From a virus (Duplodnaviria > Heunggongvirae > Uroviricota > Caudoviricetes), in the IMG/VR virus record IMGVR_UViG_2526164689_000024: 19,202 nt of DNA; one strand, given 5' to 3'. Below the pieces are notes generated by a model, which was not told the origin of the DNA, did no database searches, and worked only from the letters and a program-made list of their open reading frames with translations. Shown here piece after piece: positions 5,788-17,979 of the stretch; positions within the stretch are counted from its first letter, which is position 1; each line of letters starts with the position of its first letter. Both the position numbers and the translations under genes were made by a program.

Positions 5788-6432
5788 CTAGAGGCTGAAC
5801 TGAACACCTTTTGCTACAGCAACGATGTTACATTCCGGTGTAAGTAAGGATGATTGATAGCGTGGGTTAAGGGGGGCTAAGTACACGAGCTTTCCATCAA
5901 TAACTAATTTTTTTATAGTCATGGATGGTTCGTTTGTGAGTGGATCTGGGACTATTACTGCGACGATGCTACCATTTTTATATTTTTCGCCAGGCCTCAT
6001 GATCACTGTGGCTCCAACTGGAATGCTTGGGGACCCTGATGGATTGTGCATAGTATCATCAGGCATTGAAACGGCAAAATCTCCCTCCTTGACATCAAAG
6101 AATGTGGTGATCCTGTCGACATTTCCCATAGTTTTCTCTCCTTTTAATATTAGGAAAGAAATCGCTTCTCCCCAAGAAAGGTATGGGATTTGGATACCTG
6201 GATTTTTCTGCACAAGGGATGATTCAGGTGATGATACTCCATACAGGAGATAGGACTCAGTAGTGCCTAGTGCTAGGGCTAATTTACTAAGAGCTTTGCT
6301 ACCTGGTTCGTTTAGATCTTTCTCCCAGTATCCTATTGTTACCCCAGTTACGCCAGAAAGCTTGCCAAGTTCAACTTGGGTCAGACCTTTGTCTTTTCTG
6401 AGTTTCTTAAGCCTAATGCCAAGGCTTTCCAT
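5788..6432 (-). CDS. cI: CI-type phage repressor (N-terminal HTH_XRE plus C-terminal S24 LexA-like autopeptidase)
   Basis: 214 aa; HTH LTQVELGKLSGVTGVTIGYWEKDLNEP; C-terminal FAVSMPDDTMHNP (Ser nucleophile context) and MTIKKLV (Lys), parallel to lambda CI GNSM / FTFKKL; divergent from the cro-like gene. Confidence 0.9.
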   Translation of the reverse strand: MESLGIRLKKLRKDKGLTQVELGKLSGVTGVTIGYWEKDLNEPGSKALSKLALALGTTESYLLYGVSSPESSLVQKNPGIQIPYLSWGEAISFLILKGEKTMGNVDRITTFFDVKEGDFAVSMPDDTMHNPSGSPSIPVGATVIMRPGEKYKNGSIVAVIVPDPLTNEPSMTIKKLVIDGKLVYLAPLNPRYQSSLLTPECNIVAVAKGVQFSL

Positions 6433-6530
6433 TATTTTCTCCCGCGAATTGAATATAAATTATTTTAGATTGTATTGACCTAAAAAAATTACCCTTTAAT
6501 CTAAAAATACTTAGTTTTAAGGAGGGCGAA
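6433..6530. promoter_or_regulatory. divergent immunity control region (OR-like) with PR-like promoter
   Basis: 98-bp AT-rich intergenic region between cI and cro starts; rightward -35 TTGACC (6475-6480), about 16-nt spacer, -10 TAATCT, SD AAGGAGGG before cro ATG 6531; operator-like motif 6449-6470. Confidence 0.45.
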
Positions 6531-6758
6531 ATGCGAGTTGATGAACTTGTCCAGTTTTTTGGTTCTGTCCAAAGAGTCGCTGATTTTTATGGGGTAACCC
6601 GAGAAGCTATATACATGTGGCGTAAGCGTCCCGGCGAAATAGTTCCCAAGGGGAGGGCTGCTGAAGCAGTTGCATACTCCAAGGGAAAATTATCGTTGAA
6701 CCCAGAACTTTACAAAAAGAAGGATAACACCTCGAACGAAAGGAAAAATGATTCATGA
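6531..6758 (+). CDS. cro: Cro/DicC-like small HTH regulator
   Basis: 75 aa; FFGSVQRVADFYGVTREAIYMWRKRPGEIVPKGRAAEA resembles lambda Cro and recalled DicC; strong SD; divergent from the repressor. Confidence 0.75.
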   Translation: MRVDELVQFFGSVQRVADFYGVTREAIYMWRKRPGEIVPKGRAAEAVAYSKGKLSLNPELYKKKDNTSNERKNDS

Positions 6759-7180
6759 AAATCAAGCATGAACACATCCGCATGGCGATGAATGCCTGGG
6801 CGCATCCGGACGGCGAAAAAGTACCGGCTGCGAAAATTACCAAAGCGTATTTCGAGCTGGGGATGACGTTCCCGGAACTGTACGACGACAGTCATCCGGA
6901 AGCCCTGGCCCGTAATACCCAGAAAATTTTCCGTTGGCTGGATAAAGACACCCCTGATGCTGTTGAAAAAATTCAGGCTCTGTTACCAGCGATCGAAAAG
7001 GCGATGCCGCCTTTGCTGGTGGCCCGTATGCGCAGCCACAGTTCTGAGTATTACCGTGAGATCGTCGAACGGCGGGATCGGCTGGTGAAAGATGTCGACG
7101 ATTTTGTTGCGTCAGCGGTTGTTTTGTATGACCAGATGAATCGCGGCGGCCCGGCAGGAAATGCCGTGGTGATGCACTAA
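6755..7180 (+). CDS. YdaT-like protein (proposed CII-type regulator / toxic when overexpressed in Rac)
   Basis: 141 aa; N-terminus MKIKHEHI and length match recalled Rac YdaT; start overlaps cro stop (ATGA), implying translational coupling. Confidence 0.45.
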   Translation: MKIKHEHIRMAMNAWAHPDGEKVPAAKITKAYFELGMTFPELYDDSHPEALARNTQKIFRWLDKDTPDAVEKIQALLPAIEKAMPPLLVARMRSHSSEYYREIVERRDRLVKDVDDFVASAVVLYDQMNRGGPAGNAVVMH

Positions 7181-7202
7181 CTGCACGGTGTTCGGGGGTT
7201 TT

Positions 7203-8171
7203 ATGAGCAGCAAGCTTCATGGTCTTGTCTGGGAAGGATGCGCCTTCACCGGCATGATCTTATCCCGGGTGGCAGTGATGGCCCGTCTTGCAGACTACAG
7301 CAATGACGAGGGCGTGTCATGGCCTGCTATTGAAACTATCCGGCGTCAGATCGGTGCAAGAAGTGAATCCACCGTGAAATCGGCTATTGCAGAACTGGCG
7401 AAAGAGGGCTGGCTGACGAAGGAAGAGCGTAAGGTCGGTGGGCGTAATGTAAGCAATATCTATCGGCTTAATGTGGAAAAACTCGAAGCAGCTGCGGCGG
7501 CGGCGCGTGAGTCATATAAACCGAAAAGAAAAATTAGCCCGGCAAAAAATGACCCGTTAATAGTTGACCCGTCAAATATTGACCCCTCAACGGTTGACCC
7601 GTCAAATTTTGATGGATCAACGGTTGATAAAAAACTGCCGATTAGGGGGGCGATGATTGACCCCGATCCGTCAGTATTAAAACCTGATCCGTCAGATAAA
7701 AGATCTTCTTGTCCGGACCTTTCACTGCCGGACGAAAAACAATCATCACCAGTTGAGCGATTTCTGGAGAAACACCCGGATGCGCATACCTGGAATGTAC
7801 CGAAGCGACAGTGGGGTACCCGTGAGGATGTCGCCTGTGCGCAGTGGATTTGGGGACGGGTTGTGGCGTTGTATGAACAGGCCGCCAGTGATGATGGTGA
7901 GGTGTCACGCCCCCGAGAACCTAACTGGACGACCTGGGCGAATGATGTGCGCATGATGCGTATGCTGGATGGACGTAGTCACCGGCAGATTTGTGAAATG
8001 TTTGGGCGTGTCCAGCGGGATTCGTTCTGGGTAAAAAACATCATGAGTCCGGCAAAACTCCGGGAAAAATGGGATGAACTGGTTATCCGCCTGGGGCGTT
8101 CGCCCGCGCAGCGTTGCGTGAATCACATTTCTGAACCGGACACTGAAATACCGCCTGGATTCAGGGGGTGA
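7203..8171 (+). CDS. replication initiator, lambda O-like (N-terminal wHTH, iteron-containing gene)
   Basis: ATG at 7203 (track gives an upstream GTG at 7188); N-terminal HTH-like region ...VSWPAIETIRRQIGARSESTVKSAIAELAKEGWL; gene contains an iteron array that encodes VDPSNIDPSTVDPSNFDGSTVD; followed by a DnaC-like gene. Confidence 0.7.
   Translation: MSSKLHGLVWEGCAFTGMILSRVAVMARLADYSNDEGVSWPAIETIRRQIGARSESTVKSAIAELAKEGWLTKEERKVGGRNVSNIYRLNVEKLEAAAAAARESYKPKRKISPAKNDPLIVDPSNIDPSTVDPSNFDGSTVDKKLPIRGAMIDPDPSVLKPDPSDKRSSCPDLSLPDEKQSSPVERFLEKHPDAHTWNVPKRQWGTREDVACAQWIWGRVVALYEQAASDDGEVSRPREPNWTTWANDVRMMRMLDGRSHRQICEMFGRVQRDSFWVKNIMSPAKLREKWDELVIRLGRSPAQRCVNHISEPDTEIPPGFRG
7564..7694 (+). repeat. 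replication origin-like iteron array inside the O-like gene
   Basis: TTGACCCGTCAA (7564), TTGACCCCTCAA (7579), TTGACCCGTCAA (7594), TTGATGGATCAA (7609), partial TTGATAAAAAAC (7624), all at 15-bp spacing; then an A-rich stretch and two GATCCGTCAG copies 21 bp apart (7664, 7685). Confidence 0.7.
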
Positions 8172-8177
8172 CGTGGC

Positions 8178-8924
8178 ATGAAAAACATTGCGGCAGCCGG
8201 GGTTCTTGAACGTATTCGCAGACTTGCACCACAGGGGGCGGTTCCACCGTACCGGACGGTGGAGGAGTGGCGGGAATGGCCGCTTGCTGAAGGACGAAAA
8301 CGCAGCGAGGAGATTAACCGCCAGAATCGCCAGTTGCGGGTGGAAAAAATCCTGAATCGTTCGGGCATCCAGCCTCTGCACAGCAAATGCTCGTTTGCGA
8401 ATTATCAGGTGCAGAACGACGGGCAAAAACACGCGCTGAGCCAGGCAAAATCCATCGCTGACGAACTGATGACCGGGTGCACGAATTTTGTGTTCAGCGG
8501 TAAAACCGGCACCGGGAAAAATCACCTTGCAGCGGCGATGGGCAACCGGCTGATGGCGAAGGGGAGCAGCGTGATTATCGTCACCGTGTCTGACGTCATG
8601 AGTGTGTTGCATGACAGCTACGACAACGGCCAGTCCGGGGAAAAATTTTTACAGGAGCTTTGCGGGGTTGATTTGCTGGTCCTGGATGAAATAGGCGTTC
8701 AGCGTGAGACGAAAAACGAGCAGGTGGTATTGCACCAGATAATTGATCGCCGGACAGCATCACTGTGCAGTGTCGGGATGTTAACAAACCTGAATCATGC
8801 CGCAATGAGTACGCTTCTCGGTGAGAGGATTATGGACCGCATGACCATGAACGGTGGTCGATGGGTGACGTTTAACTGGGATAGCTGGCGTCCAAATGTC
8901 AGCAATCAGAGGGTTGTGAAGTAA
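8178..8924 (+). CDS. DnaC-like helicase loader (IstB-like AAA+ ATPase)
   Basis: 248 aa; Walker A GKTGTGKNHLAAA, Walker B LLVLDEIG; directly downstream of the O-like gene. Confidence 0.8.
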   Translation: MKNIAAAGVLERIRRLAPQGAVPPYRTVEEWREWPLAEGRKRSEEINRQNRQLRVEKILNRSGIQPLHSKCSFANYQVQNDGQKHALSQAKSIADELMTGCTNFVFSGKTGTGKNHLAAAMGNRLMAKGSSVIIVTVSDVMSVLHDSYDNGQSGEKFLQELCGVDLLVLDEIGVQRETKNEQVVLHQIIDRRTASLCSVGMLTNLNHAAMSTLLGERIMDRMTMNGGRWVTFNWDSWRPNVSNQRVVK

Positions 8925-8945
8925 TTTTTGTCGGAGGACGTTTTA

Positions 8946-9671
8946 ATGGAAACCGTATTTGACGCACTGAAAGCACTGAAAAAAGCCTCTTCACAGGTAG
9001 TGGCATCGCGCCTTGGAATCAGCCGTGAAGAGGCGGTCAACGAACTGTGGAAACTGAAGCGCCGCGGTGAAGCGGATAACAAGGGGTCGATGTGGTGGCT
9101 GACTCAGGCTGGTGAAAGTGAATCGGTGTCACCGGTACCGAAAGTGACTGCGCAAATGCTGACAGAGGCGATTGAACAACATGGCCCACAAACGGCGGAT
9201 GAACTGGCACTGATGTTCGGAATTACCTCCCGCCGGGCGAATTCATCGCTGGCAATGGCAATCAGCAAAGGGCGTCTGATTCGCGTGAATCAGGGCGGTA
9301 AATTTCGTTACTGCATGCCGGGCGATAATTTACCAGCAGAGCCGGAAGCGGCATCCGCAGCGGAAACGGATGGTAAAGCCTTTCCTCAGCCAGCAGGAGT
9401 TGCGTTACCAGTCCAGGAAACGACGACACAGGAAGAAATGAAAACAGAAATCGAGGAAGACATTGTGAAATTACAGCCATCGGTCACCGAAACGAAAGCA
9501 GATGACCTGATTCTACCATCGCTGCATGTGGCTAACCGCGAACTGCGCCGGGCGAAAAGTGATGTCCAGAAGTGGGAACGAGTCTGTGCCGCGTTGCGGG
9601 AGTTGAACAAGCACCGGGATATTGTTCGGCAGATTGTCGATTCATCCGGTCGTATTGTGTCGGAAAAGTGA
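8946..9671 (+). CDS. hypothetical phage protein with two predicted winged-helix segments and a C-terminal coiled coil (DUF1627-like)
   Basis: ATG at 8946 with GGAGG 8 nt upstream (track start 8928 is TTG); 241 aa; family guess from memory. Confidence 0.5.
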
Positions 9672-9686
9672 TTGCCGGAGGCGCTT

Positions 9687-10082
9687 ATGGCGAAACCTTT
9701 TACACACGAACAGCGTGAAGAACTGAAGGCCCGAATTATCGGGTTGGTACGCAAAAATGAACGCATGACGATATCACAACTGGAGAGAGCGACGGGAGCA
9801 GGCTGGCATTCAGTCAGACGTTGCCTTGTGGATGTACTGGCTTGTGGCGATTTATACATGTCCGGTAAATACGGTGTTTTTGCATCTGAACAGGTGTATC
9901 GCGTATGGCGTAAGACACCGGAGAAAACAACTGACCAGACATTGATTCGAAAGTTACCAGACGGAGAAATACGCCGCTATGACAGGCATAAGAACATAAT
10001 TTGCTGTGAGTGCCGAAATAGCGAAGTCATGCAGCGTGTACTGGCGTTCTGTCAGGGTAATTTTCAGGAGGTGATGGAGTGA
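9687..10082 (+). CDS. hypothetical small protein, N-terminal wHTH-like
   Basis: ATG at 9687 with GGAGG upstream (track start 9672 is TTG); 131 aa; MTISQLERATGAGWHSVRRCL helix-turn-helix-like. Confidence 0.5.
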   Translation: MAKPFTHEQREELKARIIGLVRKNERMTISQLERATGAGWHSVRRCLVDVLACGDLYMSGKYGVFASEQVYRVWRKTPEKTTDQTLIRKLPDGEIRRYDRHKNIICCECRNSEVMQRVLAFCQGNFQEVME

Positions 10083-10381
10083 GGGTGAGAATTTATATCG
10101 CTGGTCCGATGACGGGATATGAAAATTTCAACCGTGATGCGTTTCACAAGGCGGAAGAAGCGCTGAAACGGGAAGGGCATACCGTTTTAAACCCGGCAGT
10201 ACTTCCGGACGGGCTGACTCAGCCACATTACATGGATATTTGCATGGCAATGATTCGTTGTGTGGATGCGGTTTACATGCTGAAAGGCTGGCAGCAGTCG
10301 GCAGGTGCAAGGGCTGAGCTGGCACTGGCGGAGAAACTGGGCCATGCGGTGATTTTTCAGGAGGTGGGCAGTGAATATTGA
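10079..10381 (+). CDS. DUF4406-like protein (nucleoside 2-deoxyribosyltransferase-like fold)
   Basis: 100 aa; IYIAGPMTG near the N-terminus and GW..S.G...E motif, typical of NDT-like Rossmann proteins; GTG start overlapping the upstream stop. Confidence 0.55.
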   Translation: MRVRIYIAGPMTGYENFNRDAFHKAEEALKREGHTVLNPAVLPDGLTQPHYMDICMAMIRCVDAVYMLKGWQQSAGARAELALAEKLGHAVIFQEVGSEY

Positions 10382-10688
10382 CCCGGCGATAACGATTGAT
10401 ATGGCCCTGAACACCGGCCTGGCGCTTCTTGGTTATTTCTACATCATGTTCTGCAGCGGACGATGGCTGTCACTGTTGTTCATGAAAAAATGGAATAAAC
10501 GCCGTAAGCAGGAGCAACGCCAGAAGGCAATGGATGCATTTTTCGAAGCCTTCGGGATTGACAGTATGGAACCAGGGGATCCAGCTCGCGCAATCAGCAG
10601 AGGGGGCGTAGTAATCCTTGTATATCGGAGTGAAGAGAAAAATGACGATCACAAGACAACGTGTAGAAGAAATCATATCCCGCATTGA
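10371..10688 (+). CDS. small membrane protein (one TM helix plus basic tail)
   Basis: GTG start with GGAGG 8 nt upstream; TM segment ALNTGLALLGYFYIMFCSGRWLSLLF; overlaps neighbours at both ends, so start and extent are uncertain. Confidence 0.35.
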   Translation: MNIDPAITIDMALNTGLALLGYFYIMFCSGRWLSLLFMKKWNKRRKQEQRQKAMDAFFEAFGIDSMEPGDPARAISRGGVVILVYRSEEKNDDHKTTCRRNHIPH

Positions 10689-10935
10689 AATGTATGGGCA
10701 TGGTGCAGGGTATACCGCAGACGAGGTTAATGATCTGGCTGTACTGGCGCTGAATTTATCAAATATCGCGAACCTGAAGCGATACGAGCTTGATATGGGA
10801 GGTTGCGACTCGTGTGGTCAGGATTGTGGCGCAGATATGACTGAAGATCCTGATGGTGATTATGTCCTGTTTGATGACGTGGTTAAGTTGTTTGAATTTG
10901 ATACAACCACTCAAAAGTTAGAAATCCCGGCATAA
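10642..10935 (+). CDS. hypothetical phage protein
   Basis: ATG at 10642 with GGAG upstream; 97 aa; acidic, contains GGCDSCGQDCG. Confidence 0.45.
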   Translation: MTITRQRVEEIISRIEMYGHGAGYTADEVNDLAVLALNLSNIANLKRYELDMGGCDSCGQDCGADMTEDPDGDYVLFDDVVKLFEFDTTTQKLEIPA

Positions 10936-10946
10936 GGAGGCTGCCA

Positions 10947-11552
10947 GTGAGCAAGATTGACTATCAGGTACTGCGTGAAAAGGCAGAAAAAGCAACGTGT
11001 GGTGAGTGGTCTCTCGAATATGGAGAGAGCCGATTTGATGGTGATGATGCACTAATTCATCGCGAGGCTGCTGGATATATTCCCATTTGCAGAATTGAAG
11101 GAGCGCATCCTGAAAGCGGTTTCGATGAAGATTTCCAAATGGAACAGCAGGCCAATGCTGAATTCATAGCAGAGGCCAATCCGGCTACTGTGCTGGTACT
11201 GCTGGATGAACTGGAAGCCGCAGAGAAGCGCAACGCAAAATTACAAAGCGAGAATGCATACATCCGCAACCGGTACAAAGAACTGGACCTATTAATCGGG
11301 AAAAACATTCTTGTCATGCAGGCTGCGATTATCGAATGGCAGGCAACTGGCGACGCTAAAAGCGGACTGGCATGGATTTATAGCACACTGTTTGGCCCAG
11401 GCGAGTTGCCGGACGAATCTGAGAAAGATGCTCAGGCCTACTTTAATCGCAAATATGCACCGATTGACGAAAAGCTTATGGCGCTTCACAAGTGGTTTTG
11501 GGAACAAAGTGAAGCCGAGCGCGCTGCTGGCATTCGCATCAAAGGAGAGTGA
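10947..11552 (+). CDS. Ead/Ea22-like family protein
   Basis: 201 aa; GTG start with AAGGAGG 6 nt upstream; NPATVLVLLDELEAAEKRNAKLQSEN coiled-coil block typical of Ead/Ea22-like prophage proteins (from memory). Confidence 0.5.
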   Translation: MSKIDYQVLREKAEKATCGEWSLEYGESRFDGDDALIHREAAGYIPICRIEGAHPESGFDEDFQMEQQANAEFIAEANPATVLVLLDELEAAEKRNAKLQSENAYIRNRYKELDLLIGKNILVMQAAIIEWQATGDAKSGLAWIYSTLFGPGELPDESEKDAQAYFNRKYAPIDEKLMALHKWFWEQSEAERAAGIRIKGE

Positions 11553-11553
11553 T

Positions 11554-11877
11554 ATGAGCGCTATTACCAAAGAGCGACTGCTGACAATCAGGCAGTGGCG
11601 CGAAACATACGTACCTGGTAGCAACGTTGTACTGCCAGCAGAAGAAGCGGAAGAACTGGCACGGATTGCTCTGGCATCGCTGGAAGCAGAACCGGTTGGT
11701 AAATTGCATGAATACAAACCAGTGGAGTATCAACGTTCGGTCTACGAGTTAACCATGCTGGTAAAGCAGTTAGCCAGGCATCTGAAGAAAGCGAAGTTGG
11801 ACTGCAAATTACCGGATAAGGCGATGGACTATCTGAAGCGAAATGGACTGATAAGTGTGGAGGATGTTTTACGATGA
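11554..11877 (+). CDS. hypothetical phage protein
   Basis: ATG at 11554 (in frame with track ORF 11311..11877) preceded by AAAGGAGAG; 107 aa. Confidence 0.45.
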   Translation: MSAITKERLLTIRQWRETYVPGSNVVLPAEEAEELARIALASLEAEPVGKLHEYKPVEYQRSVYELTMLVKQLARHLKKAKLDCKLPDKAMDYLKRNGLISVEDVLR

Positions 11878-11957
11878 ACTGGCCTGAAGCCTTTGCAATT
11901 ACAGGCGTTGCTATGGCTATCGCTTTTTTAGTATATGTTATTTGTCGGTGGGGGTAA
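11874..11957 (+). CDS. tiny hydrophobic peptide (27 aa)
   Basis: hand-translated MNWPEAFAITGVAMAIAFLVYVICRWG; ATG overlaps the upstream TGA (ATGA); GGAGG 10 nt upstream; below track length cut-off. Confidence 0.3.
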   Translation: MNWPEAFAITGVAMAIAFLVYVICRWG

Positions 11958-11992
11958 AAACGTTCGCCGGGATTAACACCAAAGGAGGGAAT

Positions 11993-12097
11993 ATGTCGGA
12001 TGATATATCACTGGCAATGGAAGGTGCGCTGGCTGTTGTTGCTGTTGTGGGCGTTTACTGCCTGGTTGTGTTTTTGATGGATCGACTAGGGAACTGA
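11993..12097 (+). CDS. tiny hydrophobic peptide (34 aa)
   Basis: hand-translated MSDDISLAMEGALAVVAVVGVYCLVVFLMDRLGN; strong SD AAAGGAGGG 4-5 nt upstream; one predicted TM helix. Confidence 0.35.
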   Translation: MSDDISLAMEGALAVVAVVGVYCLVVFLMDRLGN

Positions 12098-12105
12098 ATT
12101 CATTA

Positions 12106-12127
12106 CGATATGGGAATTCCCATATCG
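12106..12127. repeat. perfect 22-bp palindrome CGATATGGGAATTCCCATATCG
   Basis: read directly; 11-bp arms centred on GAATTC; 8 bp after the stop of the 34-aa ORF, no flanking T-run. Confidence 0.85.
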
Positions 12128-12343
12128 GGTAAAAACGGTTTGCGGTAAAGCGAGAGTTAAGTAGAATTGCTGCGGGTGCTTGAGGCTATCTGCCTCAGGC
12201 ATGAACACCAAAAGGCAGATAGAGAAAAGCCCCAGTTAACATTACGCGTCCTGCAAGACGCTTAACATTAATCTGAGGCCCAATCTATGTCTCACAAATG
12301 TAGGTTAGCCTCTTACGTGCCGAAAGGCAAGGAGAAGCAGGCT

Positions 12344-12499
12344 ATGAAGCAGCAAAAGGCGATGTTAATCGCCCTGATCGTCATCTGTTTAACCGTCATA
12401 GTGACGGCACTGGTAACGAGGAAAGACCTCTGCGAGGTACGAATCCGAACCGGCCAGACGGAGGTCGCTGTCTTCACAGCTTACGAACCTGAGGAGTAA
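12344..12499 (+). CDS. hokD: Hok/Gef-family type I toxin (HokD/RelF-like)
   Basis: 51 aa MKQQKAMLIALIVICLTVIVTALVTRKDLCEVRIRTGQTEVAVFTAYEPEE, matches recalled K-12 HokD; an in-frame upstream ATG at 12287 would give 70 aa; leader contains a 10-bp inverted repeat. Confidence 0.8.
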   Translation: MKQQKAMLIALIVICLTVIVTALVTRKDLCEVRIRTGQTEVAVFTAYEPEE

Positions 12500-12567
12500 G
12501 AGACCCGGCGGGGGAGAAATCCCTCGCCACCGCTGATGTGTCAGGCATCCTCAACGCACCCGCACTT

Positions 12568-12596
12568 AACCCGCTTCGGCGGGTTTTGTTTTTCTG
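12568..12596 (+). terminator. rho-independent terminator at hok mRNA 3' end
   Basis: AACCCGC-ttcg-GCGGGTT stem followed by TTGTTTTT. Confidence 0.7.
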
Positions 12597-12665
12597 GTCG
12601 TTCTGGTTTACAATCCATCCGTCAGCCTGAACAACTGGCACCTGCTGCGCCAGCAGAGAAAACAG

Positions 12666-12944
12666 ATGGCGCACGATACCAAATTTTACAATTCGGATAA
12701 CTCTGCCGCCCCTGCCAGCAGGCACGGGCGGCGTTCCCGCACTTTCAAATCTGACTGGTTCCAGCATCCCCCATGCACTGAAGAACAGGCCGAGTGGCTA
12801 ATTCAGTGCTACCGCAGACACGGATACGAGATTAAGAAAGCCCTCAGCCTCGATTATCGTCACTGGATAATCTCCGTCAGGCTTCCTTACTCCGAACGAC
12901 CACCGCGTCCGTCCCGCACATTCCAGCAACGCATCTGGAGGTAA
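12666..12944 (+). CDS. hypothetical small basic protein
   Basis: 92 aa from track; stop 1 nt before the GTG start of the next gene; no recognisable motif. Confidence 0.45.
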   Translation: MAHDTKFYNSDNSAAPASRHGRRSRTFKSDWFQHPPCTEEQAEWLIQCYRRHGYEIKKALSLDYRHWIISVRLPYSERPPRPSRTFQQRIWR

Positions 12945-12945
12945 C

Positions 12946-14001
12946 GTGCGGGTATTACTTCGACCTGTTCTGGTACCGGAACTCGGGCTGGTGATCGTTA
13001 AGCCGGGCCGTGAATCCATGCCGGTATTCCACAATACCCGGGTACTGGTGGAGCCGGAACCGAAAAGCATGCGTAATCTGCCGTCCGGGGTCGTTCCTGC
13101 CGTTCGCCAGCCGCTGGCGGAGGATAAATCATTACTGCCATTTTTCAGCGACGAACGAGTGATTCGTGCTGCTGGTGGCGCTGGCGCATTGTCTGACTGG
13201 TTACTGCGCCATGTTAAATCCTGCCAGTGGCCACACGGTGATTATCACCACAGTGAAACCGTCATTCACCGTTATGGTACCGGCGCAATGGTGTTGTGCT
13301 GGCACTGCGACAACCAGCTGCGCGACCAGACCTCCGAATCACTCGGGCAACTTGCTCACCAAAACCTGTCTGCATGGATGATTGACGTCATACGCCATGC
13401 AATGAATGGCTCGCAGGAACGGGAATTATCGCTGGCTGAATTATCCTGGTGGGCGGTCCGCAATCAGGTGGCGGACGCGCTACCGGAAGCGGTATTACGT
13501 CGTTCGCTGGGGTTGCGTGCGGAAAAAATCCGCTCAATGTACCGTGAAAGCGACATCGTACCGGGAGAGCAGACCGCCACCAGCATACTGAAGCAGCGCA
13601 CAAAAAATCTTGCGCCGCTGCCTCACGTCCACCAGCAAAACCCGCCACAGGAAAAGACGGTGGTCAGCATTGCCGTTGATCCGGAGTCACCGGCTCAGTA
13701 TCTCCAGCGCCAGAAACCACAACGGGAAGAGATGCCTGTATACACGCGCTGGGTAAAAACGCAGAAATGCATGACGTGCGGTAATCAGGCAGATGATCCG
13801 CATCACATCATTGGTCATGGACTGGGAGGGATGGGAACAAAGGCTGATGATTTGTTTGTTATTCCGCTGTGCCGTAAATGCCATAGCGAACTACACGCCG
13901 GGGTAAAAGATTTTGAAGAAAAACACGGCAGCCAGCTGTTGTTGCTGATTCGTTTTTTAATGCACGCGAGAAATTCGGGTGTTCTGAAGTGGAAAGCATA
14001 A
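12946..14001 (+). CDS. DUF968-like protein with C-terminal HNH-like zinc-finger motif (YdfU-like)
   Basis: 351 aa; GTG start with GGAGG 5 nt upstream; C-terminal CMTCGNQADDPHHIIGHGLGG...PLCRKCHSELH; size and position match recalled Qin YdfU. Confidence 0.6.
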   Translation: MRVLLRPVLVPELGLVIVKPGRESMPVFHNTRVLVEPEPKSMRNLPSGVVPAVRQPLAEDKSLLPFFSDERVIRAAGGAGALSDWLLRHVKSCQWPHGDYHHSETVIHRYGTGAMVLCWHCDNQLRDQTSESLGQLAHQNLSAWMIDVIRHAMNGSQERELSLAELSWWAVRNQVADALPEAVLRRSLGLRAEKIRSMYRESDIVPGEQTATSILKQRTKNLAPLPHVHQQNPPQEKTVVSIAVDPESPAQYLQRQKPQREEMPVYTRWVKTQKCMTCGNQADDPHHIIGHGLGGMGTKADDLFVIPLCRKCHSELHAGVKDFEEKHGSQLLLLIRFLMHARNSGVLKWKA

Positions 14002-16676: not shown

Positions 16677-16752
16677 CGGCCCTTTAGCTCAGTGGTGAGA
16701 GCGAGCGACTCATAATCGCCAGGTCGCTGGTTCAAATCCAGCAAGGGCCACC
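16677..16752 (+). tRNA. tRNA-Ile2-like (anticodon CAT, probably lysidine-modified; Met cannot be excluded)
   Basis: cloverleaf parsed by hand: acceptor GGCCCTT/AAGGGCC, D-arm GCTC-AGTGGTGA-GAGC, anticodon loop CTCATAA, T-arm GCTGG-TTCAAAT-CCAGC, CCA encoded; very similar to recalled E. coli ileX. Confidence 0.8.
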
Positions 16753-16853: not shown

Positions 16854-16930
16854 GCGTTGTTAGCTCAGCCGGACAGAGCAATTGCCTTCTAAGCAATCGG
16901 TCAGTGGTTCGACTCCACTACAACGCGCCA
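16854..16930 (+). tRNA. tRNA-Arg (anticodon TCT, reads AGA/AGG)
   Basis: cloverleaf parsed by hand: acceptor GCGTTGT/ACAACGC, D-arm GCTC...GAGC, anticodon stem ATTGC/GCAAT with loop CTTCTAA, T-arm AGTGG-TTCGACT-CCACT, CCA encoded. Confidence 0.8.
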
Positions 16931-17695: not shown

Positions 17696-17862
17696 TTTTT
17701 TTGTTTGCTGTTTATTAAAAACACTTCTGCATGGTGAATCCCCCTGTGCGGAGGGGCGATCAGCAACCAGGTATATGGGATAATCGCGGATTTAGGTGCT
17801 GATACTGAATTCACCGGGAGGCACCCGGCACCATACAAGAAAAAGAATGTGCATGCAAACAT

Positions 17863-17886
17863 GCCCCTCTCCGGAGGGGCTTTTTT
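17863..17886 (+). terminator. strong rho-independent terminator
   Basis: GCCCCTC-tccg-GAGGGGC 7-bp GC-rich stem followed by T6. Confidence 0.8.
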
Positions 17887-17979
17887 ATGGGTAAAAAATG
17901 CCCGAATGGGTTCGGGCAATAGCATGAGATACTGATATTGTTGTGTTGTTATCGTGTGGATTTTAACCAGGGTTTATCA

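Follow-up and report, generated by a model that had tools for sequence, protein, structure and literature searches.

A minimal DUF4406 protein with a nucleoside 2-deoxyribosyltransferase-like fold, and its DUF4752 neighbour, in the nin-type region of an Escherichia coli prophage

The window analysed here is a stretch of 19,202 nucleotides (Caudoviricetes; IMG/VR record IMGVR_UViG_2526164689_000024), which is a Rac/lambdoid prophage of Escherichia coli. Two small overlapping genes in it, named here after their Pfam families DUF4406 and DUF4752, are the subject of this report. The 610 bases that they occupy together (10079-10688) match a prophage of E. coli O111:H11 strain 8D at 100% identity. 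In the RefSeq/NCBI record of that prophage, the two products are labelled as members of the same two families; the 100-residue protein has the same sequence as RefSeq WP_001428060.1. An earlier sequence-only reading had described the first gene as a 100-residue open reading frame (ORF) with two signature motifs. This ORF is present, with IYIAGPMTG at residues 5-13 and GWQQSAGARAE at residues 70-80. Both genes are real, as indicated by their low ratios of nonsynonymous to synonymous substitution (dN/dS) and by their identical annotation in the strain 8D prophage. When DUF4406 is compared with its copies in phages Rac-SA53 and D6, the ratio is 0.10 and 0.20, respectively, and purifying selection acts on both genes. 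The coordinates of all features, including the Shine-Dalgarno sequences, are given in Table 1.

The membership of the first protein in DUF4406 is clear. It matched Pfam PF14359 with 126.1 bits (E 7.2e-37, cut-off 22), and its residues 4-93 cover profile positions 2-91 of 91. At E values up to 0.1, the Pfam matches of the protein were limited to DUF4406, DUF1937 (partial), and Nuc_deoxyrib_tr. In PHROGs, it was assigned to phrog_355 (1e-47), which is named 'nucleoside 2-deoxyribosyltransferase'; the PHROG matches were all to families that are similar to nucleoside 2-deoxyribosyltransferases (NDTs) or to fusion families. The sequence-only reading had left the function unassigned. This agrees with the outcome of full-text literature searches, in which DUF4406 was mentioned three times in passing, and DUF4752 and PF14359 not at all.

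The structure of the DUF4406 protein was modelled as a monomer by AlphaFold2 using 44 homologues. The model is confident, with a predicted local distance difference test score (pLDDT) of 90.4 and a predicted TM-score (pTM) of 0.84. Its layout is b1(4-8)-a1(19-31)-b2(35-37)-a2(48-59)-b3(64-67)-a3(75-87)-b4(90-93). The NDT-like fold that had been suggested from the motifs is thus recovered by structure prediction, as a flavodoxin-like alpha/beta fold of the NDT type. The top matches of the model in a Foldseek search of the PDB were NDTs, MilB, human DNPH1/Rcl, and the DUF1937 structure 1T1J; the query TM-scores of the NDT, MilB, and DNPH1 matches were 0.7-0.77. Among the predicted viral structures of BFVD, the best matches were phage proteins named deoxyribosyltransferase. 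Several longer BFVD matches were named 'dATP/dGTP diphosphohydrolase N-terminal domain-containing'.

The residues of DUF4406 were compared with those of DNPH1 by profile-to-profile alignment in hhalign. The profiles contained 148 DUF4406 representatives from an exhaustive search and 87 DNPH1 sequences, and the DNPH1 query sequence was 99-100% identical to the database entries. A narrower DUF4406 alignment run against the single DNPH1 sequence had aligned only the N-terminus, and was replaced by this comparison. The resulting alignment runs collinearly through 86-92 columns, in agreement with the secondary structure. DNPH1 has the catalytic triad Tyr24/Asp80/Glu104 and forms its covalent intermediate on Glu104; the 5'-phosphate is held by Ser98 together with Ser128' of the partner subunit, and the base by Ile29 and Ile76 (PMC10603095). 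The aligned pairs (DUF4406 = DNPH1) are Tyr6=Tyr24, Met11=Ile29, Tyr51=Ile76, Cys55=Asp80, Ser74=Ser98, Gly76=Gly100, and Glu80=Glu104.

By this alignment, DUF4406 carries two traits of the NDT superfamily, namely a nucleophile Glu at the start of helix 3 (Glu80) and a Tyr after strand 1 (Tyr6). It also carries a trait of the DNPH1 type, a Ser six residues before the nucleophile (Ser74). These positions are highly conserved among the representatives. Ser74 is found in 139 of 139 and Glu80 in 137 of 139, and the Tyr6 column contains Tyr in 126 and Phe in 16 of 143 sequences. The column aligned to Asp80 of DNPH1 contains Cys in 99, Asp in 20, and Ala in 8 of 146 representatives. Asp is therefore the second most common residue in this column, which supports the alignment. 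Other invariants of the family are Asn18-Arg19, Phe22, Asn38-Pro39, Pro43, Gly45, and Trp71. The proposed active site consists of Tyr6, Met11, Asn18-Arg19, Tyr51, Cys55, Ser74, Gly76, and Glu80.

DUF4406 is a large family. A total of 12,310 clusters at 50% identity were found at E values up to 0.001. The family is present in 623 phage records, with hosts including Arthrobacter, Vibrio, Gordonia, Mycobacterium, and Pseudomonas, and in 1195 of 5426 complete E. coli genomes (about 22%). Across many phyla, prophages carry its genes in the regions for replication and DNA metabolism, and DUF4406 is a stand-alone module of these early and DNA-metabolism regions. The neighbourhoods of 80 DUF4406 loci from different species were compared, and no neighbour recurred in more than 10% of them. 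The neighbours included replication protein O (8 loci), lysozyme (8), C5 methylase (7), DnaC-like protein (6), and Dam (5). Ea22 (4), RdgC (4), DUF977 (3), and DUF4752 (2) were rarer.

DNA methyltransferase genes lay within 4 kb of DUF4406 in 11 of the 80 loci, a count for which there is no control set. The C5 methylase loci were L044, L054, L055, L065-L067, and L069, and the Dam loci were L043, L051, L053, L054, and L056; L054 has both. A DNA methyltransferase gene also adjoins DUF4406 in the actinophages Nadeem and Brujita. Prophage early regions often carry methylases. For this reason, and given the missing control set, the recurrence is not read as a functional link.

A functional clue came from a domain fusion. 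In Mycobacterium phage NihilNomen, Pfam identified gp166 as a fusion of DUF4406 with a nucleoside triphosphate (NTP) pyrophosphohydrolase of the MazG/PRA-PH type. This protein matched phrog_12019 over its full length (1.8e-158) and phrog_671 (3e-34); the fusion architecture thus has a PHROG of its own, phrog_12019. It was the only real fusion among three candidates. The other two are proteins of 122 residues that contain DUF4406 only: gp55 of Arthrobacter phage Cote and its relatives, named 'deoxycytidylate deaminase' (locus L004, 2477-2845), and gp4 of Dinoroseobacter phage R7L, named 'MazG-like pyrophosphatase' (L006, 1672-2040). They probably inherited these names from fusion families. When 17 long proteins (194-358 residues) among the closest DUF4406 representatives were scanned with Pfam, no second domain was found in any of them. 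Their extensions are regions that match no family or mis-called starts, and give no functional clue.

A similar fusion is known for DmtZ, an NDT-like enzyme of phages with 2-aminoadenine DNA that was described in a 2026 paper; in phage Wayne, DmtZ is fused to a dUTPase-like (Dut-like) dNTP pyrophosphatase (PMC12884076). The DUF4406-MazG fusion parallels this arrangement and suggests the same logic, in which the pyrophosphatase makes a monophosphate and the NDT-like domain removes or exchanges its base.

The near invariance of the aligned Glu80 and Ser74, together with the NTP pyrophosphatase fusion, points to an enzyme of nucleotide metabolism, and the occurrence of this fusion in some phages favours a base-removing activity. 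We regard the chances as about even that DUF4406 is a minimal enzyme which removes or exchanges the base of a nucleoside 5'-monophosphate, and not a passive sponge. The substrate class, the chemistry, and the oligomeric state are all proposed by homology to DNPH1, MilB, and DmtZ. In this proposal, DUF4406 would be a minimal member of the NDT superfamily, with about 95 residues and four strands. Its most likely activity would be that of a retaining N-glycosidase working as a dimer, which either hydrolyses its substrate or transfers the sugar phosphate. Ser74, perhaps with Asn18 and Arg19, would hold the 5'-phosphate, and Met11 and Tyr51 would clamp the base. Glu80, oriented by Tyr6, would attack C1'. 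The base would then be released, and water or another base would take over the (deoxy)ribose 5-phosphate from the covalent intermediate with the enzyme. As a speculative biological role, the protein might edit or clean the nucleotide pool during phage replication.

Several observations weigh against this proposal. The match to the NDT family of Pfam (Nuc_deoxyrib_tr, PF05014) reached only 15.4 bits (E 0.021), below the gathering cut-off of 28.8. PDB sequence searches with the protein and with the 44-sequence profile gave no meaningful match. The hhalign match to DNPH1 is weak (E 0.004, probability 8%). Because the sequence link to DNPH1 and the NDTs is weak and no PDB sequence was matched, the residue equivalences rest on a collinear, low-scoring alignment and on the fold matches, and not on a superposition. 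The general-acid Asp of the NDTs and DNPH1 is replaced by Cys55. The 100-residue protein ends after strand 4, and so the helical extension that carries Ser128' in DNPH1 is missing. Also absent are the C-terminal residues with which an NDT subunit completes the active site of its neighbour in the oligomer. No conserved partner gene in the 80 loci would fix a pathway, and full-text searches naming the family or the fold found no biochemical study of DUF4406. Nor is there an obvious need for such an enzyme in a temperate phage whose DNA is canonical. As for the acid position, DmtZ and TbPDT are active with Asn at the middle position of the triad (PMC12884076). A Cys at this position thus does not exclude catalysis.

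Other readings of the same evidence were weighed against a base-removing enzyme. The sequence-only reading had suggested that such proteins could be sponges for second messengers of defence. A non-catalytic binder of this kind, which as a sponge or decoy would sequester nucleotide-derived defence signals (cyclic oligonucleotides or isomers of cyclic ADP-ribose, for example), appears improbable. The residues aligned to the nucleophile Glu and the phosphate-binding Ser of DNPH1 are nearly invariant; the fused domains are nucleotide pyrophosphatases and not anti-defence modules, and the best fold matches are enzymes. No PADLOC model matched the DUF4406 or the DUF4752 protein, and searches of Pfam, PHROGs, and PADLOC placed DUF4406 in no described family of phage sponges or signal-degrading proteins. 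Literature searches found no paper that links NDT-like phage proteins to sponging. The part of the earlier reading that concerned fold and family therefore stands, and the sponge part found no support and is somewhat disfavoured. Somewhat less doubtful, but still unlikely, is a true NDT that swaps bases between free deoxynucleosides. This name is used by phrog_355 and by many GenBank phage records, and NDTs are among the top fold matches. However, such names are transferred by similarity, and the score against PF05014 lies well under its cut-off. Nucleoside-specific NDTs, such as that of L. leichmannii, carry Asp six residues before the nucleophile, whereas DUF4406 has the invariant Ser found in the phosphate-binding DNPH1. 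Moreover, the fused NTP pyrophosphatases would deliver monophosphates and not nucleosides.

The Cys at the acid position could also be accommodated by cleavage of a glycosidic bond of the nicotinamide or ADP-ribose type, in nicotinamide mononucleotide (NMN), nicotinamide adenine dinucleotide (NAD+), or a derived signal. The leaving group of such a substrate needs no protonation, so that the enzyme could do without the general-acid Asp. TIR domains (TIR NADases and ThsB) were clear fold matches of DUF4406, and the NDT-like effector of retron Eco1/Ec86 reportedly hydrolyses NAD+. Nevertheless, we consider this activity very unlikely. It is pure inference, the gene context of the loci examined gave no link to NAD metabolism genes, and the TIR domains ranked below the NDT-type enzymes in both fold searches. 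One paper on Ec86 describes a depletion of adenine, adenosine, and deoxyadenosine by the activated system, and states that the mechanism of the effector is unknown.

A bolder possibility, to which we would give little credence, is that DUF4406 is a widespread counter-defence factor of phages, which destroys an immune signal or a toxic nucleotide analogue, or which poisons host effectors as a decoy. In one version, it may be a minimal N-glycosidase acting on a nucleotide-derived immune signal or on a toxic nucleotide analogue made by the host, and the replacement of Asp by Cys would be an adaptation to an unusual substrate. In the other version, it may be a catalytically tuned decoy that pairs with NDT-like or TIR-like host effectors that must dimerise. 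None of the findings speaks specifically for either version.

The second gene encodes the DUF4752 protein, whose function is proposed to be separate from that of DUF4406. The protein matched Pfam PF15944 with 135.4 bits (E 7.2e-40, cut-off 27), with residues 7-90 on positions 1-84 of 84. As had been noted from the sequence, its ORF overlaps both neighbours, DUF4406 by 11 nucleotides and the downstream phrog_3126 ORF by 47 nucleotides. The earlier reading had also called it a one-transmembrane protein. The ORF certainly exists; a single transmembrane segment is plausible but not proven, since the hydropathy is moderate. The hydrophobic segment (residues 11-37) contains an Arg, and its highest Kyte-Doolittle value in a 19-residue window is 1.41. 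It is flanked by an acidic region on the N-terminal side and by the basic cluster KKWNKRRKQ on the C-terminal side. The AlphaFold model, whose confidence is medium to low (pLDDT 70.6, pTM 0.32), contains one long helix (5-61), a beta-hairpin (72-85), and a disordered region (89-105). DUF4752 is probably a small membrane protein that spans the membrane once; from the distribution of charges, its N-terminus is predicted to be out and its C-terminus in. The part of the helix that follows the basic cluster is predicted to be cytoplasmic.

The DUF4752 ORF is conserved, with 57 homologue clusters and a dN/dS of 0.20 against VT2-Sakai; against D6, the synonymous sites are saturated. Nearly all of the 57 clusters come from E. 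coli and Shigella, and weaker relatives occur in prophages of Rouxiella and Edwardsiella and in phage D6. The alignment showed conservation of the hydrophobic segment, the basic cluster, and the C-terminal part that ends in ..VVILVYRSEEK. Most of the homologues have about 91-96 residues and end in ..VYRSEEKNERD. The 105-residue form arises because the next in-frame stop lies 47 nucleotides into this particular downstream gene. Its C-terminal tail (14-17 residues) is encoded in an alternative frame of that gene. A functional extension was considered for this tail and rejected: most homologues stop at ..EEKNERD, the tail occurs only with this downstream gene, and it is predicted to be disordered.

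The overlap of the two genes raises the question of whether they form one functional unit, such as a membrane-tethered or membrane-regulated enzyme, or a toxin with its partner. In addition to the 11-nucleotide overlap, they are adjacent in 419 of the 5426 complete E. coli genomes, and phage D6 and the Rouxiella and Edwardsiella prophages carry both in one accessory block. A functional pair is nevertheless highly improbable. Short overlaps are common to the whole operon. Among the same genomes, DUF4406 occurs in 1195 and DUF4752 in 523, and the adjacent pair in only 419. In phage Rac-SA53, the order DUF977-DUF4406 is followed directly by ead, and in VT2-Sakai the DUF4752 gene adjoins other small genes with no DUF4406 beside it. 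Within the accessory block of D6, Rouxiella, and Edwardsiella, which also holds Ea22-like genes, the two genes are 0.6-1.7 kb apart. DUF4406 spans many phyla, whereas DUF4752 is confined to enterobacterial prophages and was present in only 2 of the 80 DUF4406 loci from other species. The link implied by the sequence-only reading is therefore weak: the two genes are separate mosaic modules that lie apart in many phages. DUF4406 and DUF4752 are independent accessory genes, linked by nothing except position.

Traces of module exchange might be seen at the borders of the DUF4406 gene. Two copies of the 12-mer TTTCAGGAGGTG, where 0.10 would be expected, bracket this gene and are the only ones in the window. 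In Rac-SA53 (L002) and in locus L009, too, the 12-mer lies upstream of DUF4406. The bracketing and this recurrence fit an exchange of modules at short junctions, and the 12-mer may be a junction sequence that contains a ribosome-binding site. In addition, the C-terminal third of the DUF977 gene and DUF4406 travel as one mosaic segment in phages Rac-SA53 and vB_EcoS-689R5.

The surrounding gene order was taken from the strain 8D record. It begins with integrase, excisionase, exonuclease, dicB, a LexA-like repressor, cro, and YdaT. The middle part consists of an O-like helix-turn-helix protein, a DnaC-like ATPase, DUF1627, DUF977, DUF4406, and DUF4752. These are followed by a frameshifted ORF, an Ea22-like gene, hokD, DUF968, RusA, and DUF1133, and then by a DNA methyltransferase, tRNAs, and lysis genes. 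Both ORFs thus lie between the replication genes and RusA/DUF1133, which is the position of the nin region of lambda. The term 'nin-type region' used in the earlier reading is right by position.

Short gene overlaps are the rule along the operon. The TGA stop of DUF977 overlaps the GTG start of DUF4406 as GTGA (10079-10082). At the other end, the first 47 nucleotides of the phrog_3126 ORF are also read in another frame as the DUF4752 tail; in the E. coli genome with the identical prophage, the NCBI annotation pipeline PGAP labels this ORF (10642-10960) 'frameshifted'. Scans from 6000 to 13000 for promoter-like and terminator-like sites stayed at or below chance when compared with shuffled sequence, and an Rfam scan gave no match inside 10079-10688. 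Given the overlapping starts and stops and these two negative results, DUF4406 and DUF4752 appear to lie inside a long early (early-right) operon and to be translationally coupled like their neighbours.

Table 1. Features of the window in and around the DUF4406 and DUF4752 genes
Feature	Coordinates	Strand	Remarks
DUF977 family gene (LygF)	9672-10082	+	Pfam DUF977 3.8e-66; phrog_142
12-mer TTTCAGGAGGTG, copy 1	10062-10073	+	holds AGGAGG of DUF4406; encodes C-terminal '..FQEV' of DUF977
Shine-Dalgarno AGGAGG of DUF4406	10066-10071		7 nt before start
DUF4406 gene	10079-10381	+	100 aa, GTG start; Pfam DUF4406; minimal NDT/DNPH1-fold protein
12-mer TTTCAGGAGGTG, copy 2	10355-10366	+	holds AGGAGG of DUF4752; encodes '..FQEV' near DUF4406 C-terminus
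AGGAGG of DUF4752	10359-10364		6 nt before GTG
DUF4752 gene	10371-10688	+	105 aa, GTG start; Pfam PF15944; phrog_667
Hydrophobic segment of DUF4752	10401-10481
Downstream ORF, phrog_3126	10642-10935	+	ATG start; phrog_3126 5.9e-63, profile positions 1-97 of 105
Ea22-like gene	10947-11552	+
ORF after Ea22	11551-11877	+
sok antitoxin RNA	12174-12349	+	Rfam 121.7 bits
Terminator-like hairpin	12568-12585
tRNA gene	16678-16750	+
tRNA gene	16854-16927	+
STnc100 small RNA	17700-17892	+	Rfam 140 bits
AgvB (anti-GcvB small RNA)	17893-17954	-	Rfam 96.5 bits

Some other features of the window were also observed. The PHROGs name for the DUF977 gene is 'Ren-like exclusion protein'. The N-terminal part of the Ea22-like protein matches Pfam Ead_Ea22, and its C-terminal half (residues 90-188) matches the PADLOC model DpdH (2.8e-36). 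The DUF4406 protein of phage D6 (L008, 3280-3597) has 203 residues, and its C-terminal extension ends in the motif LP.EAMNYLK..VVSEDGVL. A weak similarity (E 0.005) links this motif to the C-terminal end, LPDKAMDYLKRNGLISVEDVL, of the ORF that follows Ea22 in the window; a short C-terminal module may be shared among accessory proteins of the region. The sok RNA belongs to a type I toxin-antitoxin locus of the hok/sok type. In the identical genome hokD is annotated beside it, and a good terminator-like hairpin follows. Downstream of the DNA methyltransferase gene are the two tRNA genes of the prophage, for which the identical genome gives the annotations tRNA-Ile and tRNA-Arg. STnc100 and AgvB abut on opposite strands.

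Both proteins have already been catalogued and annotated, and nothing in this window is new. It is for this reason an ordinary piece of mosaic prophage, and the juxtaposition of DUF4406 and DUF4752 is one of many mosaic arrangements. The interest lies in DUF4406 itself, as a very abundant, minimal version of a catalytic fold whose functions in phages are only beginning to be described. If it is a nucleotide N-glycosidase, it would provide temperate phages with ordinary DNA with a cheap, portable module of 95 residues for editing the nucleotide pool. Such enzymes have so far been known only from phages with 2-aminoadenine DNA (DmtZ) and from the sanitation of nucleotide pools in eukaryotes (DNPH1). 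With a Cys at the general-acid position and the trans-acting C-terminal elements lost, DUF4406 would then be the smallest working version of the fold.

The proposed enzyme can be compared with several known systems. DNPH1/Rcl is a 2'-deoxynucleoside 5'-phosphate N-hydrolase (PDB 8QHQ, 8QHR, and 2KHZ) of 130-170 residues, compared with about 95 in DUF4406. It has a strand 5 in addition to the extension that donates Ser128', both of which are absent from DUF4406, and its general acid is Asp80 in place of Cys55. The similarity is detectable only from profile to profile, and unlike DNPH1, DUF4406 is encoded by phages and prophages. DmtZ is a dAMP N-glycosidase that transfers deoxyribose 5-phosphate to the Z base, and has the triad Tyr6-Asn77-Glu103 (PMC12884076). 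Like DmtZ, DUF4406 would be a phage-encoded NDT-superfamily enzyme acting on a deoxynucleoside monophosphate, and the middle residue of the triad is again not Asp. However, DmtZ has about 145 residues and five strands, and its authors reported no similarity in sequence databases and no Pfam model; the two proteins are likened here by description only. The phages that encode DmtZ have 2-aminoadenine DNA, whereas the annotation of the identical genome gives no sign of a modified-base pathway in this prophage.

MilB and BcmB, the N-glycosidases of CMP and hydroxymethyl-CMP, are larger enzymes of antibiotic biosynthesis with 16-20% identity to DUF4406. DUF1937 (PF09152; PDB 1T1J, structural-genomics target APC5043) is a separate Pfam family that matches only residues 50-93 of DUF4406; it is equally uncharacterised, and adds no functional information. 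The NDTs (PF05014), including those of L. leichmannii, Chroococcidiopsis, Trypanosoma, and Leishmania, share their fold with DUF4406 and have the nucleophile Glu in an equivalent place. They differ from DUF4406 in their Pfam model, for which DUF4406 remains below the gathering threshold, and in the residue before the Glu. DUF4406 has a Ser at this position instead of an acidic residue, which suggests that its substrate might be phosphorylated.

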